Below are positions 28,874 to 35,669 of a stretch of DNA of 64,000 nucleotides, piece after piece. The notes beneath the pieces are model-generated. The model was given only the letters and a program-made list of their open reading frames with translations. It was not told the DNA's origin and made no database searches. Origin of the DNA: an uncultured Ignavibacteria bacterium (GTDB lineage: Bacteria; Bacteroidota; Ignavibacteria; UBA10030; UBA6906); NCBI GenBank assembly GCA_963701735.1, contig CAVPBI010000001.1, positions 7,729-71,728 of the forward strand, in the 5' to 3' direction. The translations under genes were made by a program, and so were the position numbers. Every line of letters starts with the position of its first letter. Positions within the stretch are counted from its first letter, which is position 1.

Positions 28874-29018
28874 AAGCGCACGTCCATACGACTTCCCGCC
28901 TGGTCGACGGGAACAGCCGTGGCCGGATCCTGGTCACCCTCCACAGAGTGAGGGGGAGAGCAGGTCTTCTTCTGACGCTGCAGTGTCGAACACGCCACTG
29001 GAAGAACCCGAGGAAACA

Positions 29019-30884
29019 ATGAGAACACGCTCCGTCCACCTTGCACCCGGGATACTTGCTGCCCTCCTCCTCACGGTGGCCCCGGGAGTCGCATTGTCCC
29101 AATACACGGTGCGGTCGCCCTATCTTATGGACCCGACGCTCGCGATCGGATACGTCGACAGTTGCGCCACATTCTGGGAAAAGGCCTACGATTCACTGAA
29201 CGGCGGATTCTTCACGAACATCGGCCGGTCGGGAAACGTGAAGACCCCATACGACAAGTATCTCCTGAGCCAGACGAGAAATGCCTACGGTTTCGTGCGG
29301 GCGTTCATGCTGACCGGTCAGGAGCGGTATCTCACGATGGCCCGGCGGGCGCTCGACTTCATGTACCGGCACCACTGGGACACCACACGTGGCGGCTGGA
29401 TCACGATGGTCGACCGGTTCGGTGGCCAGACAAGCGCCGGCTGGCAGAAGACGGCGTTCGACCAGCACTATGCTCTGCTGGGACCTTCTGCCTATGTCGA
29501 GGCCACCCAGGACACGCTCGACTGGGCGTGGCTGAACGATGGCTACGAAAGCAACGAGACACACCTCTGGGATTCCGGCCCGACCTCCGAGGGGTACTTT
29601 GACAACGCCAGTGCCGACTGGTCCGTCCGTACCGGGAAGAGCTTCAATGCCACAGTGGATGCCGTGACCACCCACCTGCTCACCATGTATCTGATGACGC
29701 AGGATGCGCTGTATGCGACGCGGCTGAAACAAATGGCCGATCAAATGGTCCAGCGGTTTGCGGGAACGATGGGTCAGCAACGCATCGGTTTCGTAGAGAT
29801 GTTTTCCACCGATTGGAGCTGGAGCAACACTACTGCGAACAACAACACCAGGACGATCATGGGGCATGTGCTCAAGACCGCATGGTGTCTGGGGAGGATT
29901 CATCAGCTGTTTCCTGATCCGCTGTACGTGGCGACGGCCGAATCGCTCATGAATGATGTGCTGGCAAAAGGATACGATCATCATTACGGCGGCCCGTACA
30001 AGGACTATGACCGTGTGACAGGCGAGATGTTCATGTACGGGCAGGACACCGCGAAAGCCTGGTGGCAGATGGAACAGGCGATCACGGCGGGTCTGATGCT
30101 GTACGAGATCACGAAGAAGGAATCCTATCTTGCGGCGGCCGATGCGACCGTCGATTTCTTCATGCGGTACTTCGTCGATCACGTCTATGGCGACGTGTAC
30201 TCTGACCGTTTCCGGAATGGCGCCGCCATTACGGCATGGGGGAACGACAAGGGCAATGCGTACAAGGCTGGCTATCACTCGATTGAGCTGGGGTATTATC
30301 TCTACCTGTATGGCAATCTCTTCGTCAGGGGCCTGCCGGTTACACTCTACTACCGGTTTCAGGCGCTCGACGAGGAACGCGAGATCAGGTTGAACCCCCT
30401 TGCGTACTCCTCGCCGAAGTACAGGATCCAGCACGTGCTTGCCGACGGCACGGAGTACACGGAGTTCGATGCCGCGAACCGCACCCTCCACCTGCCTCCC
30501 GGAACAGGAGGGCTATTCGCGGTGAGATACGAGCCGGTGCTGACCGGGACAGGTTCACTGGCAGATGGTGCCCCGCAGTCAATCAGGCTGCTGCAGAATT
30601 TTCCCAATCCCTTCAATCCGGCCACGACAATCCGGTATGCGCTGCCAGAAGCGGCAGTGGTGAGGCTGGCGGTATTCAACGCTGTTGGTCAGCGTGTGGC
30701 AGATCTGGTGGATGAGACACAGGCGGCAGGGTACCACGAAGTGCGGTTTGACGGGTCCTCGCTCTCGTCGGGAGTGTACTTCTACAGGTTGCAGGTCCGC
30801 CCTCTGGAGTCCGCCATCGGGCGTGACTCCAGGAGCGAAGCGGGTGATTTTGTGCAGACAAAGAGGCTTCTGCTTTTGAAATAG
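29019..30884 (+). CDS. AGE-family epimerase/isomerase-like protein (N-acylglucosamine/cellobiose 2-epimerase fold) with signal peptide and T9SS CTD
   Basis: DSLNGGFF, QTRNAYGF, GHVLKTAW, WWQMEQA, KAGYH motifs; QNFPNPFNPAT CTD. Confidence 0.8.
   Translation: MRTRSVHLAPGILAALLLTVAPGVALSQYTVRSPYLMDPTLAIGYVDSCATFWEKAYDSLNGGFFTNIGRSGNVKTPYDKYLLSQTRNAYGFVRAFMLTGQERYLTMARRALDFMYRHHWDTTRGGWITMVDRFGGQTSAGWQKTAFDQHYALLGPSAYVEATQDTLDWAWLNDGYESNETHLWDSGPTSEGYFDNASADWSVRTGKSFNATVDAVTTHLLTMYLMTQDALYATRLKQMADQMVQRFAGTMGQQRIGFVEMFSTDWSWSNTTANNNTRTIMGHVLKTAWCLGRIHQLFPDPLYVATAESLMNDVLAKGYDHHYGGPYKDYDRVTGEMFMYGQDTAKAWWQMEQAITAGLMLYEITKKESYLAAADATVDFFMRYFVDHVYGDVYSDRFRNGAAITAWGNDKGNAYKAGYHSIELGYYLYLYGNLFVRGLPVTLYYRFQALDEEREIRLNPLAYSSPKYRIQHVLADGTEYTEFDAANRTLHLPPGTGGLFAVRYEPVLTGTGSLADGAPQSIRLLQNFPNPFNPATTIRYALPEAAVVRLAVFNAVGQRVADLVDETQAAGYHEVRFDGSSLSSGVYFYRLQVRPLESAIGRDSRSEAGDFVQTKRLLLLK
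30795..30839 (+). repeat. 45-bp in-frame palindromic element in the T9SS CTD (VRPLESAIGRDSRSE)
   Basis: Absent from the closely similar CTD at 35409-35654; contains ctggagtc-cgcc-atcg-ggcg-t-gactccag. Confidence 0.85.
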
Positions 30885-30934
30885 TATCACCTGATACCAG
30901 GTGTCGGTGGGTTTATAGTTTACGATCTCGTCTC

Positions 30935-31741
30935 TCAGGAGTCAAGCGGTACCAGGTCGAGGTACTGCTTGACGACTGAGGGAGCGAGACGGATGATACG
31001 GGAGATGACCTCGGGATCATCGAATTTGGTTGATAAGAGCCTGACGGATTCGAAGTCACGGATGTAGCGCTCCACGGCTTCTCTGGAGTGGTTGGTTTTC
31101 GTGCAAATGGTTGGTGTGAGATAGCCCTTGAGGTGAAGGGCAATGATCACACGTTTGTGCGTCTGGCCGCCGCCAATAAGCTGGATGTTGCCGCGAGTAG
31201 GGAGGGATCGGTTGTACAGATTCTGGTACTCGCGGACGCAGACTCCAACGGTGACGGTGGTGCTCGCCAGGAGAACGGCGAGATCAAGCTGAGAGAGCAG
31301 CGCCCCCTGGTCGTAGGCTTGGTGTGTCCAGCGCTCGATCTTCTTCATCTTGAGTTCGTGAGCGCCTACAGGGGTTTTCAGGCCTTCAATATCGTCGTCG
31401 GTGATCATGTCGAGGACCACCGGCTTGAGTCTGGTCTGGGCCATGGATTTGCCCTTCTTGGGGTACTCGTCGACTGGGACAGCATGCCAGACGATCTGTC
31501 CCTGCTTCAGGAACGAATTGTCCTTGTAGCGGTAGTACTGCTCGATGAGGGCGAGCAAATCATCGATGATGGCGGAGGCAGTGACAGCGCCCTTATCGTA
31601 GCCGTAATGGTTCAGGAAGCGGTCTAGGACGATGTGCTTCAGAGATTTGCCCTTCATGCGCTTGTACTCACGAAAGGCGTCGGCAGCAGGCGAATGATCG
31701 CGGGTGTCCCTGGGGATGAAGCGTAAGTTCTTTGCAATCAT
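30935..31741 (-). CDS. DUF1670-like HTH protein (element ORF B)
   Basis: AYDQGALLSQLDLA, LPTRG..IGGGQTHK, HSREAVERY; ATGA overlap with ORF A. Confidence 0.85.
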   Translation of the reverse strand: MIAKNLRFIPRDTRDHSPAADAFREYKRMKGKSLKHIVLDRFLNHYGYDKGAVTASAIIDDLLALIEQYYRYKDNSFLKQGQIVWHAVPVDEYPKKGKSMAQTRLKPVVLDMITDDDIEGLKTPVGAHELKMKKIERWTHQAYDQGALLSQLDLAVLLASTTVTVGVCVREYQNLYNRSLPTRGNIQLIGGGQTHKRVIIALHLKGYLTPTICTKTNHSREAVERYIRDFESVRLLSTKFDDPEVISRIIRLAPSVVKQYLDLVPLDS

Positions 31742-32520
31742 AGCGTTCGGCGCCCCCTTTTTTTAGGGGTCTGGAGGATCCGCTTGAGCTCTCGGCTTGT
31801 TGCGTGTGCCTTGAGGAGCTTGAGGTACTCATTGATCAGGCGGACGGAGAAGCCAGTGGAAATGCGGATTTGGTGGACGGAGAAGCCCTTCTTGTGGAGT
31901 AAGGCGACACGGGCGAAGTCCTGGATGTAGCGTTTGATGGCGGTCTCGGAATGCTTTGTGCGCCGCTCGATCTCGGAGAACTGGTAGCCGGAGAGATAGA
32001 GCTCAAGGATCTGAGTCTTGTGGGTCTGTCCGCGACCCATCTCGTGACGCCAGCCTCGCGAGGGGAGGATGATCCCCTTTTTGCGCATCGAGCTCATGTC
32101 GCGCTTGATGGTGACGACACTGCACGTGAGGATGAAGGCAATATCCTCATAGGACAGGACGCCGCCTTGATCGATGGCTTCGTTGGTGATGCGGACGATC
32201 TTGTGCTGCCTGAGACCATGGAGCCCGGACTTGTTGTAGACCGGGAGGTCTTCCTCAGGGTTGTGCAGCGTTAGCTTGACGGAGACCTTCTTGCAGAGAG
32301 CAATAGGCTTGCCAGCGGGCTCGTTCTCGTCGACGGCCAGATACTGACACTGACCCGAGCCGAGCTGAACCTCGGCATGCTGGAGGAAGTAGTCGCTGAT
32401 CTGAGAGAAGTACGCTTCAGCCAGGATCGGGGTGAGGTTGAAATCTCTGGCGATGCTCGAGATGATCGACTGCCGAACAGACTTCGACTGAAGTCGAGCG
32501 GTGAGCGGTTGATCCAACAT
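31738..32520 (-). CDS. DUF1670-like HTH protein (element ORF A)
   Basis: EAIDQGGVLSYEDIA, TIKRD, LPSRG..MGRGQTHK, HSETAIKRY; RBS ggagg. Confidence 0.85.
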   Translation of the reverse strand: MLDQPLTARLQSKSVRQSIISSIARDFNLTPILAEAYFSQISDYFLQHAEVQLGSGQCQYLAVDENEPAGKPIALCKKVSVKLTLHNPEEDLPVYNKSGLHGLRQHKIVRITNEAIDQGGVLSYEDIAFILTCSVVTIKRDMSSMRKKGIILPSRGWRHEMGRGQTHKTQILELYLSGYQFSEIERRTKHSETAIKRYIQDFARVALLHKKGFSVHQIRISTGFSVRLINEYLKLLKAHATSRELKRILQTPKKRGRRTL

Positions 32521-32600
32521 ATGATACCTCCGGCAAAGAGATAGTGAAAGTAACCACTTTTTGCCTAGGTATCAGGTGATACTAACCTAAAGTAGGACCG

Positions 32601-32741
32601 ATGGAGGCGGCGAAAGGGGGTAAGGATTTCGGAGTGACGGACTTCTTTCTCTGTCCTGTGTGCGGCTATATCGAGTTCCTGAAAGCACCTGACAAATGCC
32701 CGGTGTGCGGCATCCCGGGCACCAAATTTACGAAGGGCTGA
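32601..32741 (+). pseudogene. 5'-truncated rubrerythrin remnant (C-terminal rubredoxin-like domain only)
   Basis: MEAAKGGKDFGVTDFFLCPVCGYIEFLKAPDKCPVCGIPGTKFTKG*: two CxxCG motifs; di-iron domain missing; too short for the ORF track. Confidence 0.8.
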
Positions 32742-32856
32742 CGTTCGGGTCTTCGCTGGCACTGGAAGCCACACGCTCCGGGCTTTGATCCCGGGCGAGG
32801 AGAGTTGTCTTCTGCACGCCGCGGGTCGGCTGCGGCCCCAATACGACCGGGTCATC

Positions 32857-33777: not shown

Positions 33778-34136
33778 TCAACAGGCAGGAAACTGACTGG
33801 TCTCCATTTCCCCCCTTGTTTGTCCCGCCTTTCACGCCTCGCCGGATCATTTCTTCTATGTAATTGATGGTGCGACAGTCCAGCCCCCGTTCACTTCACA
33901 GTGGTTCTCCTGCAACCGGTGAGCTGAGGCACCGGTCCTTCCGCTTGAGATGGCTCCTTGCGCACATGGGTGAAGAAATTGCACAGATGGGTGATAGTCC
34001 GCGTACTGGAGTCCCCTCATATTGCCTGAAAGGGCCGAATTCTGTAGATCGGTCCGTTCCTTCGTTCTGGCAGCAGATTTGCAACAGTCTGACGCTGTCA
34101 TCCATCCGGATGATCATCACCATCAGCGAGGGCCAC

Positions 34137-35654
34137 ATGCGTCTCTGGACCATAGTTCTGTTCCTCCTGGTAGCCTCCGTGGCTTCCGGGCAGGTAGGCG
34201 TCATCAGCACAAATCCGGCTCACAACTCGACCAGCGTTCCCCTTGAGGCAACGATCAGCGTGACATTCAGCGGAGAAGTCGATACGACCCTTTCATTCGC
34301 CCAGGGTGAAAACTACTTCACCAACGTTACCACGCTCCTGGGCCAATGGTGGAGCGCCGACCGCCGGACGATTTCCTTCTCGGTCGTCCTCGAGCCTTCG
34401 ACCGTCTATTTTCTCCTGATCCACAGCGCGAAACCGGTTGCCGGCGGCGGGTTCCCCGTTCCGTACTGTTTCTACTGGACCACAGCGGCAACGTTTCCGA
34501 CGGATCTCCACTCTGTGAGCGGAACGATCTTCAGCGGAGGCAGCCCGGTGACACCCGATAATGCGATTGTCGGACTGGGAGCAACCCCGTTTTCCGGCAG
34601 CGACCCTGCCTTTGTCGGGGTGGCAGTGACCAATGCCCTGGGACAGTTCACCATCCCGTACGTTGCTGACGGGACGTGGTATCCCATTGCCGCGAAAGAC
34701 GCCGACCTGAATGGCATGATCGACCCGGGTGCGGGCGACCCGCTTGCTTTCGGCGACAGTGTGACGGTGAGCGGAGCTGACGTCACCGGATTCAACATGC
34801 AGTTCTTCACATATGAGCCGGTCCGCTTCGCCGCGGCACGCGATTCCATTTCTGCAAAGGCATCGGACCTCCTTCCTCCAAACCATGAACTCCGCCAGTT
34901 CTACGGATGGCAGGTTGATTCCACCGGCGCCGCAAAGGAGTTCGACGGGATCTACACTGTCCCTGGAAGCGAGTTCCTCACTGAGATATGGATAGAGGCG
35001 TTCGGGATGCAGTACGACACTATGCCAATCTGGAACTATGGGGCCAACTATTCACGTCCCTACACAGGCCTCGCCTCCGCAGCCCTGCTGGATTCGGTCG
35101 TTGCGCGCGCGGAACGGATGGGGGGCAAGGAGTTTCGCAGGCAGGCTCCTCCGGTTGCCGGCAGCTACTTCAACGCCTATGCCCGACTAGGCGCGCTCCA
35201 CAATTCGGAATTTCGATGGATGGTGTCAGATACGAGCCAGGACTACTGGGGACTCCAGTACACATTCCAGGTCCAGGCCACGATGGATAGCAGCTACTCC
35301 GTGGCGTGGAAGATGTTCCTGGCAAGCGCCACGACGGGGGAGATCATCAATGTGACCGGTGTTGAGGAGGAAGGTCCAGCTGCGCTCCCCACATCGTATG
35401 CGCTTGCGCAGAACTTCCCGAACCCGTTCAATCCCGCAACGACGATCCGGTACGCGCTGCCGGAAGCGGCAGTGGTGAGGCTGGTGGTTTTCAACTCCGT
35501 GGGTCAGCGCGTGGCAGATCTGGTGGATGAGGCACAACCGGCAGGGCACCATGAGGTGCGGTTCGACGGATCGACGCTCTCCTCAGGAGTGTACTTCTAC
35601 AGGCTGCAAGCGGCCGATTTTGTGCAGACAAAGAGGCTCATGCTTTTGAAGTAG
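34137..35654 (+). CDS. Secreted protein with N-terminal Ig-like (Big_5) domain and T9SS CTD
   Basis: Signal peptide MRLWTIVLFLL; VISTNPAHNSTSVP..ISVTFS; CTD without the palindromic insert. Confidence 0.8.
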   Translation: MRLWTIVLFLLVASVASGQVGVISTNPAHNSTSVPLEATISVTFSGEVDTTLSFAQGENYFTNVTTLLGQWWSADRRTISFSVVLEPSTVYFLLIHSAKPVAGGGFPVPYCFYWTTAATFPTDLHSVSGTIFSGGSPVTPDNAIVGLGATPFSGSDPAFVGVAVTNALGQFTIPYVADGTWYPIAAKDADLNGMIDPGAGDPLAFGDSVTVSGADVTGFNMQFFTYEPVRFAAARDSISAKASDLLPPNHELRQFYGWQVDSTGAAKEFDGIYTVPGSEFLTEIWIEAFGMQYDTMPIWNYGANYSRPYTGLASAALLDSVVARAERMGGKEFRRQAPPVAGSYFNAYARLGALHNSEFRWMVSDTSQDYWGLQYTFQVQATMDSSYSVAWKMFLASATTGEIINVTGVEEEGPAALPTSYALAQNFPNPFNPATTIRYALPEAAVVRLVVFNSVGQRVADLVDEAQPAGHHEVRFDGSTLSSGVYFYRLQAADFVQTKRLMLLK

Positions 35655-35669
35655 TGTCAGGTGATACCA
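35652..35669. repeat. Solo (empty) copy of the element-end palindrome
   Basis: TAGTGTCA-GG-TGATACCA overlapping the stop codon; 18/20 identical to the site rebuilt by removing the 30882-32584 element. Confidence 0.75.

Follow-up and report, generated by a model that had tools for sequence, protein, structure and literature searches.

The DNA considered here is a window of 64,000 nucleotides from an uncultured Ignavibacteria bacterium (GenBank assembly GCA_963701735.1, contig CAVPBI010000001.1, positions 7,729 to 71,728 of the forward strand), and all positions are counted from its first letter. It contains an insertion element built around two overlapping genes, A and B, whose products belong to the DUF1670 family (Table 1). 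Both proteins match PF07900 above its gathering score of 25 bits (A, 202.9 bits, E 5.4e-60; B, 194.2 bits, E 2.6e-57), and an identity of 31% over 207 residues (E 1e-25) makes them paralogues. A and B are the only genes of the element and cover 1,586 of its 1,711 bp, with some 50-70 nt of non-coding DNA at each end. The two genes lie between the arms of a perfect 17-bp inverted repeat (30882-30898 and 32568-32584), each of which holds a palindrome of the form GTATCA-NN-TGATAC. The element starts with A-TAG-TATCA... and finishes with ...TGATAC-TAACCTAAA, between boundaries that can slide by up to 2 nt owing to a shared AA. Since the two genes fill the element and persist across great divergence as a pair or as a fusion, its propagation depends on A and B.

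Table 1. Features of the DUF1670 element and of its insertion site (positions of the window)
Feature	Position	Strand	Remarks
Target gene: N-acetylglucosamine (GlcNAc)-2-epimerase-like protein with type IX secretion C-terminal sorting domain	28983-30884	plus	PF07221 E 5e-28; Por_Secre_tail E 6e-6
Target-site sequence form			...CTGCTTTTGAAG TAG...
Whole DUF1670 element, 1,711 bp	~30881-32591	minus	Genes convergent with target gene; three copies, empty alleles, 67 distinct related elements
Left end (LE): A+TAG, palindrome GTATCA-CC-TGATAC (30884-30897)	30881-30898	plus	Completes the host's last codon; new stop TAG at 30882-30884
Gene B, DUF1670 paralogue, 268 aa	30935-31741	minus	Motif at 31064-31198
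Gene A, DUF1670 paralogue, 260 aa	31738-32520	minus	Motif at 31927-32061; overlaps B by ATGA
Right end (RE): palindrome GTATCA-GG-TGATAC (32569-32582) and 9-nt tail TAACCTAAA	32568-32591	plus	Last bases of the tail match the target
Displaced target remainder: G (32592, third base of the original last codon) and original stop TAG (32593-32595)	32592-32595	plus	Empty allele

A sequence-only reading of the window had noticed that both proteins end in a shared signature, THK-x9-G-x11-HS-x5-RY, and likened it to the catalytic box II of tyrosine recombinases. The signature is genuine. Both open reading frames (ORFs) are present and the spacing is correct in each: in A the signature spans residues 154-198 of 260 (SRGWRHEMGRGQTHK-TQILELYLS-G-YQFSEIERRTK-HS-ETAIK-RY) and in B residues 182-226 of 268 (TRGNIQLIGGGQTHK-RVIIALHLK-G-YLTPTICTKTN-HS-REAVE-RY). 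Its terminal position did not hold, as a third helix-turn-helix (HTH) of about 40-60 residues comes after it. Conservation, given in the numbering of A, was read from an alignment of 87 diverse DUF1670 members (mean column identity 28%) that were chosen among 895 cluster representatives (E<=0.001) and 438 closer matches. The four residues H/K/H/Y of the motif are all but invariant (H167 and H190 100%, K168 and Y198 99%), followed by G162 (98%), P153 (97%), G156 (94%), D160 (91%; the residue is E in A and L in B), R155 (89%) and R197 (84%). Outside the motif, Y232 (98%), R110 (97%), Q118 (94%) and D126 (90%) stand out, and the N-terminal 95 residues hold no polar invariants comparable to those of the motif. 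Judged from this alignment, the signature is family-wide, far beyond chance, and the most conserved part of the DUF1670 family. One homologue is labelled 'transposase' in one source, and the other named ones are 'hypothetical' or 'DUF1670'.

Natural fusions of the two proteins occur as ORFs of 527 aa in two related loci (L022 and L025), so A and B very probably act together. This joint action agrees with the heteromeric pair of the sequence-only reading, while the identity of that pair as a divergent tyrosine recombinase finds no profile or fold match. Double and triple DUF1670 fusions reach 500-950 aa; four homologues of 930-950 aa (P0123, P0127, P0131 and P0133) carry three DUF1670 stretches per chain, and one of 400 aa (P0218) has a DnaG-type CHC2 zinc finger C-terminal to its DUF1670 part.

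AlphaFold2 models built from family alignments reached a mean predicted local distance difference test (pLDDT) of 90.8 for A and 88.5 for B. The model of A begins with N-terminal helices and one beta-hairpin (57-64, 78-84), after which a long helix leads into a winged HTH (about 97-162); a loop (148-166) bears PxRGxxH(D/E)xG, and is followed by a second HTH of three helices (167-176, 181-188, 192-210) and a third HTH (215-222, 226-238). In the model, THK opens the first helix of the second HTH, HS forms its turn and RY lies within its recognition helix. The signature, as modeled, is therefore a linker (PxRGxxHDxG) plus a second HTH that resembles LuxR and sigma region 4. Foldseek found no match in the PDB at E<=0.001 for either model. 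In an exhaustive VIA-align search of 48,161 chains, from which the best 50 rows each were taken for A and B, the highest Z scores were 6.5 (A) and 6.0 (B), which are modest, as usual for domains of 50 residues, and the matches listed are single HTH or winged-HTH domains or similar small helical pieces. Residues 97-162 of A match NiaR, Z-alpha, LexA and the CAP domain of Topo VI-A. The motif region (A 165-213, B 193-241) matches DesR, sigma-28 and region 4 of both SigE and SigA (1.7-3.5 A over 48-53 residues), among them DesR with A (Z 5.4, 1.7 A, 49 residues) and DesR and sigma-28 with B (Z 5.8 and 5.4, both 1.7 A). The C-terminal part matches TrpR, DeoR and resolvase HTHs. Weak Pfam matches over A 166-212 were to HTH_7 (E 0.0035), HTH_28 and HTH_Tnp_Tc3_1 (E 0.042). 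There is no solved DUF1670 structure, and a sequence-profile search of the PDB returned only a CAP-repeat design (E 0.0014).

Two features of the second HTH point in different directions. Y198, seven residues past the Ser that opens the recognition helix, occupies what we take to be the position usually filled by His, Tyr or Trp in the HTHs of LuxR/GerE, Hin/resolvase and transposases, and Y232 is its counterpart in the third HTH. By contrast, an H-K pair that never varies at the start of helix 1, and a turn His that is likewise invariant, are not ordinary for an HTH. The LuxR/GerE domains, sigma-70 region 4 and the C-terminal HTH of resolvase and Hin (HTH_7) are alike in fold, with DesR, sigma-28 region 4 and SigE region 4 superposing at 1.7-2.8 A over 48-51 residues (Z 5.2-5.8), but to our knowledge such domains only bind DNA and have neither an invariant H-K at the start of helix 1 nor an invariant His in the turn. 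General HTH geometry would bring three of these parts together on the DNA-facing side, namely the beginning of helix 1, the arm ahead of this helix and the turn.

The likeness to tyrosine recombinases was not borne out by sequence profile, fold, residue span or sites. Scans of A and B with Pfam and NCBIfam gave no integrase (PF00589) match at E<=1. The genome itself encodes four PF00589 genes, and when the three intact ones were aligned and compared with the DUF1670 profile by hhalign, the probability was 3.3%, in a register that pairs the integrase Tyr with Y232 of the third HTH and not with Y198. The box II pattern RH-x9-G-x10-GH-x8-Y does fit these integrases. In tyrosine recombinases the catalytic residues extend over some 130 residues or more, from the box I Arg by way of the beta-hairpin Lys and HxxR to the Tyr. 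In the model of A, however, R155 and Y198 lie 43 residues apart, all helix or loop with no beta-hairpin between them, whereas 131 residues separate the box I Arg from the Tyr in two of the genome's own integrases. Integrase, topoisomerase IB, protelomerase, HUH and RNase H-fold chains are all missing among the matches listed by the fold searches, where absence does not exclude a fold and the N-terminal 95 residues are barely covered; the motif region matches HTH domains instead. A tyrosine-recombinase catalytic domain, whether by descent or by fold, is thus not supported for A or B.

The extent of the element is established by empty alleles. Contigs from two independent studies read ...TTG AAG TAG GACC... 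and pass straight from 30878 to 32590, so that 1,711 bp are missing (two bases are ambiguous), which places the element at about 30881-32591. In a genome of the same genus (G001), the orthologous gene ends ...TTGAAATAA and carries no element. Related loci were gathered with a single protein as query, 21 from genomes and 80 from metagenomes. Together with the three copies of this genome, and with the most distant genome locus (L038, 31% identity) left out, 103 were analysed (20 genome, 80 metagenome, three own). Two palindromes lie 1,450-1,850 bp apart in 70 of the 103 loci, 67 of them distinct; five loci have no such palindrome. The junction statistics that follow hold for the subfamily with GTATCA arms only. 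At the left end, TA is preceded by A in all 67 loci, and the host codon completed by this first A of the element is AAA in 57 of them and AGA, GAA, CGA or CAA in the other 10. At the right end, the triplet that follows is a stop in 62 of 64 cases (TAA 27, TAG 18, TGA 17, other 2), and the base before it is A in 42 and G in 22. Since the third base of the codon is a purine before and after insertion, the amino acid is kept while the element adds a new stop, and the host protein is unchanged.

The genes entered are those of type IX secretion cargo. The flanking ORFs end ...KKMxLLK in 49 of 63 cases by a strict pattern, within a set pre-filtered by flank sequence, and nine of ten tested carried Por_Secre_tail, a domain with 132 matches in this genome. 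Orientation is constant within the subfamily, with the B side adjoining the host gene. The element therefore enters type IX secretion cargo genes in fixed orientation, between the second and the third base of their last sense codon. Two other subfamilies have the arms AGGACA/TGTCCT and GTGTCA/TGACAC, and their palindromes likewise come directly after the ...AAATA of type IX secretion genes; the two arms covary between subfamilies and CA..TG stays fixed.

In this genome the element is present in three copies, on contigs C1 (the window), C32 and C4. The first two differ at 4 positions in 1,711 bp (99.8% identity), and the third carries one 5-nt deletion and four deletions of 1-2 nt. The 5-nt deletion of the third copy (G000 contig C4, 17531-19232, at the contig end) falls in an A-run at the junction of A and B and turns both into one open frame of 549 aa, and the four small ones lie in B; this could be a decaying copy or the product of homopolymer assembly errors. 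A tblastn search of a plasmid collection gave no match. The family is spread patchily, with members in 9 of the 301 genomes sampled from the phylum. Many of the homologues were met on contigs only 1-3 kb long, and both patchiness and short contigs are usual for repeats. Overall, the family extends over a large number of bacterial and archaeal phyla.

The two ends are informative about mechanism. The sequence-only reading had taken the centre of the palindrome for a 2-bp core, and this did not survive comparison among relatives. In 59 elements the centre dinucleotides (LE/RE) were AA/TT in 16, CC/GG in 13, GG/CC in 6, CC/CC in 5, AA/CC in 5, AA/GG in 4, TA/TA in 3 and otherwise in seven, so that the centre is not conserved, does not pair between the two ends and is non-complementary in 21 of the 59. 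The joints lie outside the palindromes and are asymmetric, 3 nt beyond the left one and 9 nt beyond the right one. A crossover at the palindrome centre was rejected on both grounds; judged from these comparisons, the centre looks like the uncontacted spacer of a dimer site. At the left end of the window copy, the centre CC and the inner flank also form a second inverted repeat, CACCTG-ATAC-CAGGTG (30888-30905), which overlaps the palindrome and folds as single-stranded DNA at -5.7 kcal/mol; its formation hinges on the centre dinucleotide, and relatives with AA/TT centres lack it.

The tip of the right end follows the target. Its last two bases and the target bases before the joint read AA/AA in 60 loci, CG/CG in 3, CG/AG in 3, AA/GA in 2 and AA/CA in 1, with one stacked case, which amounts to agreement at position -1 in 69 of 70 loci and at position -2 in 63 of 70. 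The six elements whose right end finishes in CG form one clade, and all sit in genes that end in an Arg codon (...CG^R or ...AG^R, the caret marking the joint). As the CG tip is shared by a clade, it is heritable, and the target changed with it. Furthermore, the putative circle junction (...CTAAA^ATAG...) mimics the target (...NNAA^R-TRR). No such joint is among those listed for the contigs of four runs, which drop rare forms and are uninformative either way. A simple duplication of TA or of the stop codon was ruled out by the 67 junction pairs and the empty allele.

For an element with precise, site-specific insertion that encodes only two proteins, the most economical reading is that these proteins are its recombinase, a role that the sequence-only reading had also given them. 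We infer that A and B, which some relatives carry as a fusion, form a recombinase of a new kind that does the breakage and joining, and consider this about evenly balanced between right and wrong. A and B would bind, as a hetero-oligomer, the 6-2-6 palindromes near each end and would themselves break and join the DNA; the sites joined would be the RE-LE junction and the look-alike target. Catalysis would rely on the invariant His, Lys, His and Tyr, with Arg and Asp, expected on the DNA-facing side of the second HTH. Based on the finding that the DNA sites differ between subfamilies (GTATCA, AGGACA and GTGTCA arms), the invariant polar residues are unlikely to be base-reading. Recombination by A and B is favoured because these residues persist across subfamilies that read different DNA, and because no dif-like or other known site is visible. 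Catalytic tyrosines on HTH or winged-helix modules are known in topoisomerases, namely in the 5Y-CAP domains and in topoisomerase V; given these examples a putative HTH-borne active site would not be absurd. The fuller proposal, that DUF1670 is a new class of recombinase or transposase with an active site built on an HTH (His167, Lys168, His190 and Tyr198, with Arg155 and Asp160), a working paralogue pair and a target chosen partly by matching to the right end, is held more tentatively, at somewhat below an even chance.

Several points weigh against catalysis by A and B. No known catalytic fold or domain was found in either protein by Pfam, NCBIfam or the fold searches, and a domain scan of 18 long DUF1670 forms revealed no known catalytic domain fused to them. 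Because an aromatic residue or His is the rule at the corresponding position of many HTH families, as presumed above, Y198 and Y232 may be ordinary HTH residues with a structural or phosphate-contacting part only. The B-type paralogues lack the H159/D160 pair and have QL, QD or LD there instead; if the pair matters, A alone would be fully equipped. The clustering of the invariant residues is a prediction from general HTH geometry, and the covariation of right end and target goes back to one evolutionary event. Target duplication is at most 1-2 bp, and a 1-bp duplication (2 bp being less likely) is indistinguishable from microhomology. A paralogue pair that recombines by unusual chemistry is nonetheless the leading, if unproven, explanation.

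The alternative that survives best has A and B only as DNA-binding or synapsis factors, which designate the ends and the target and bring in an enzyme that nearly every host has, such as a Xer-type tyrosine recombinase. It would predict proteins made of HTH units in which no catalytic fold can be recognised, as is the case here; the four tyrosine recombinases of the genome could supply the enzyme, and the precise, nearly duplication-free insertion is of the kind seen in conservative recombination. There is precedent as well, in that XerD is activated by XafT, a small HTH protein of the TLC phage, and IMEX elements exploit XerCD. Yet no dif-like site, with two 11-bp arms and a 6-8-bp centre, is visible at the ends or at the targets; the targets are more than 100 dispersed gene ends and not a single chromosomal site; the helper would have to be universal for a family found across many bacterial and archaeal phyla; and binding would not call for His, Lys, His and Tyr to be kept at nearly 100% in subfamilies whose DNA sites differ. 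Recruitment of a host enzyme is considered less likely than catalysis by A and B, and is the main alternative to it.

Movement as single-stranded DNA in the manner of IS200/IS605, with the palindromes as subterminal hairpins, cleavage 3' of a short target motif and DUF1670 in place of the HUH enzyme, is improbable. It would account for the asymmetric ends (3 nt between tip and palindrome at the LE, 9 nt at the RE), the fixed orientation, insertion on the 3' side of a short conserved target that is duplicated little or not at all, and the free variation of what would be loop positions. The hairpin stems, however, would be only 5-6 bp long and AT-rich: the right end folds at -3.0 kcal/mol (z -0.45), and the best fold of the left end uses a different, centre-dependent stem. 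Such weak single-strand folds speak against a hairpin mechanism of this type, neither A nor B shows a HUH/Y1 fold or motif, and a dimer bound to duplex DNA would be expected to use just such a site, a perfect palindrome whose centre is not contacted. Finally, that A and B are very divergent XerC/XerD-like tyrosine recombinases, with THK...HS...RY as box II, Y198 as nucleophile and exchange at the palindrome centre, is barely credible and as a statement of homology largely refuted, for although a box II-like spacing, conserved His, Lys, Arg and Tyr and the near absence of target duplication speak for it, the profile comparison, the domain scans, a 50-residue three-helix HTH with too short an Arg-Tyr span, the mismatched centres and the junctions outside the palindromes all stand against it.

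Comparison with known systems gives only partial likenesses to the paralogue pair and its element. Tyrosine recombinases (XerC/XerD, phage integrases) share precise, near duplication-free and orientation-specific integration and the use of a paralogue pair, but have a catalytic domain of about 170 residues where a small HTH is found here, and their inverted arms flank an overlap of 6-8 bp where the present palindromes have a freely varying centre of 2 bp. IS200/IS605, IS110/IS1111 and IS607 are similar in being small, in inserting in one orientation at a short conserved target with little or no duplication, and in having subterminal repeats and a junction that looks like the target; they differ in encoding a HUH, DEDD or serine-recombinase protein, none of which is encoded here by the Pfam and NCBIfam scans. 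No Y1_Tnp match of the IS200/IS605 kind was found in Pfam or NCBIfam, although the end architecture is similar, with weak hairpins. A guide RNA would have little room, with about 70 nt of non-coding DNA at either end, and an Rfam scan of 30700-32750 gave no match at E<=1. Pfam gave no match to the serine recombinase PF00239, only the HTH part of resolvases being matched; IS607 and the serine recombinases, moreover, need an identical 2-bp crossover dinucleotide in both sites, unlike the mismatching palindrome centres here. IS630 and Tc1-mariner elements share terminal inverted repeats, tandem HTH units (the weak HTH_Tnp_Tc3_1 match) and a possible 2-bp duplication, but have a DDE/RNase H domain that is absent here, and they insert at any TA, whereas the ends here are asymmetric and the target is a codon-exact gene end. 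No DDE family was matched in Pfam or NCBIfam, and the model has one beta-hairpin only. Insertion sequences with a DDE transposase duplicate at least 2 bp of their target; here, the flanking dinucleotides disagree at -2 in 7 of 70 loci. IMEX elements with an HTH activator, as in the TLC phage, are alike in that a small HTH protein could direct a host recombinase; they differ by their dif-like site, in place of which many dispersed gene-end targets are used here.

The surroundings of the insertion record other events. The Por_Secre_tail score of the target gene, 26.8 bits, lies just below the 27-bit cut-off, and the sorting domain contains about 47-48 extra nt (VRPLESAIGRDSRSEAGD, 30796-30842) that are missing from a metagenome variant (joint 30795 to 30843, run X5) and from a paralogue at 33864-35654; they probably explain the low score. 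Downstream, only the last 46-48 codons of a rubrerythrin gene are left (32599-32741, plus strand; ...MEAAKGGKDFGVTDFFLCPVCG...KG*), while in the genome of the same genus the gene is complete (165 aa; PF02915, E 7e-25) and a further 520 bp or so are present. As the empty-allele contigs already have this deletion, it predates the insertion of the element. The paralogue at 33864-35654, a second type IX secretion gene, ends ...TTG AAG TAG, and a solo palindrome, GTGTCA-GG-TGATAC (35654-35667), follows directly with no genes behind it; it is probably the remnant of another DUF1670 element at the same kind of site. The 'empty' site of the same-genus genome (locus L009) reads ...GAAATA-AGGACATGTGTCCT-CCCACTTTT and is homologous to the left end of AGGACA-type elements (L049, L051), which marks it as a solo end remnant. 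In five GTATCA-type elements (L033, L065, L089, L109 and L134), the palindrome of another type comes directly after the right end. From such neighbouring remnants it follows that successive elements pile up at one codon, with the most recent arrival adjoining the gene. The palindrome as a pre-existing, attB-type target was rejected, as both solo palindromes look like left-end remnants of other DUF1670 subfamilies.

A literature search found no paper on DUF1670, PF07900 or such an element, with ISfinder outside the search, and no NCBIfam transposase model fits A or B. By these searches it is an insertion element of a type not yet described. All prokaryotic insertion-sequence families known to us use DDE, DEDD, HUH, serine or tyrosine catalytic folds. 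Here, a widespread family has only two tandem-HTH proteins, yet inserts with single-nucleotide precision. Should the proteins be catalytic, they would add a new class to the enzymes that cut and join DNA; otherwise, they would represent a new way for a minimal element to hijack host recombination. By landing inside the last codon and restoring both codon and stop, the element leaves the host protein untouched and has more than 100 safe sites per genome. Since one clade altered both the terminal bases of its right end and its targets, target recognition is directly testable, and if DUF1670 is indeed a new class of recombinase, the target would be re-programmable by changing the last bases of the right end.

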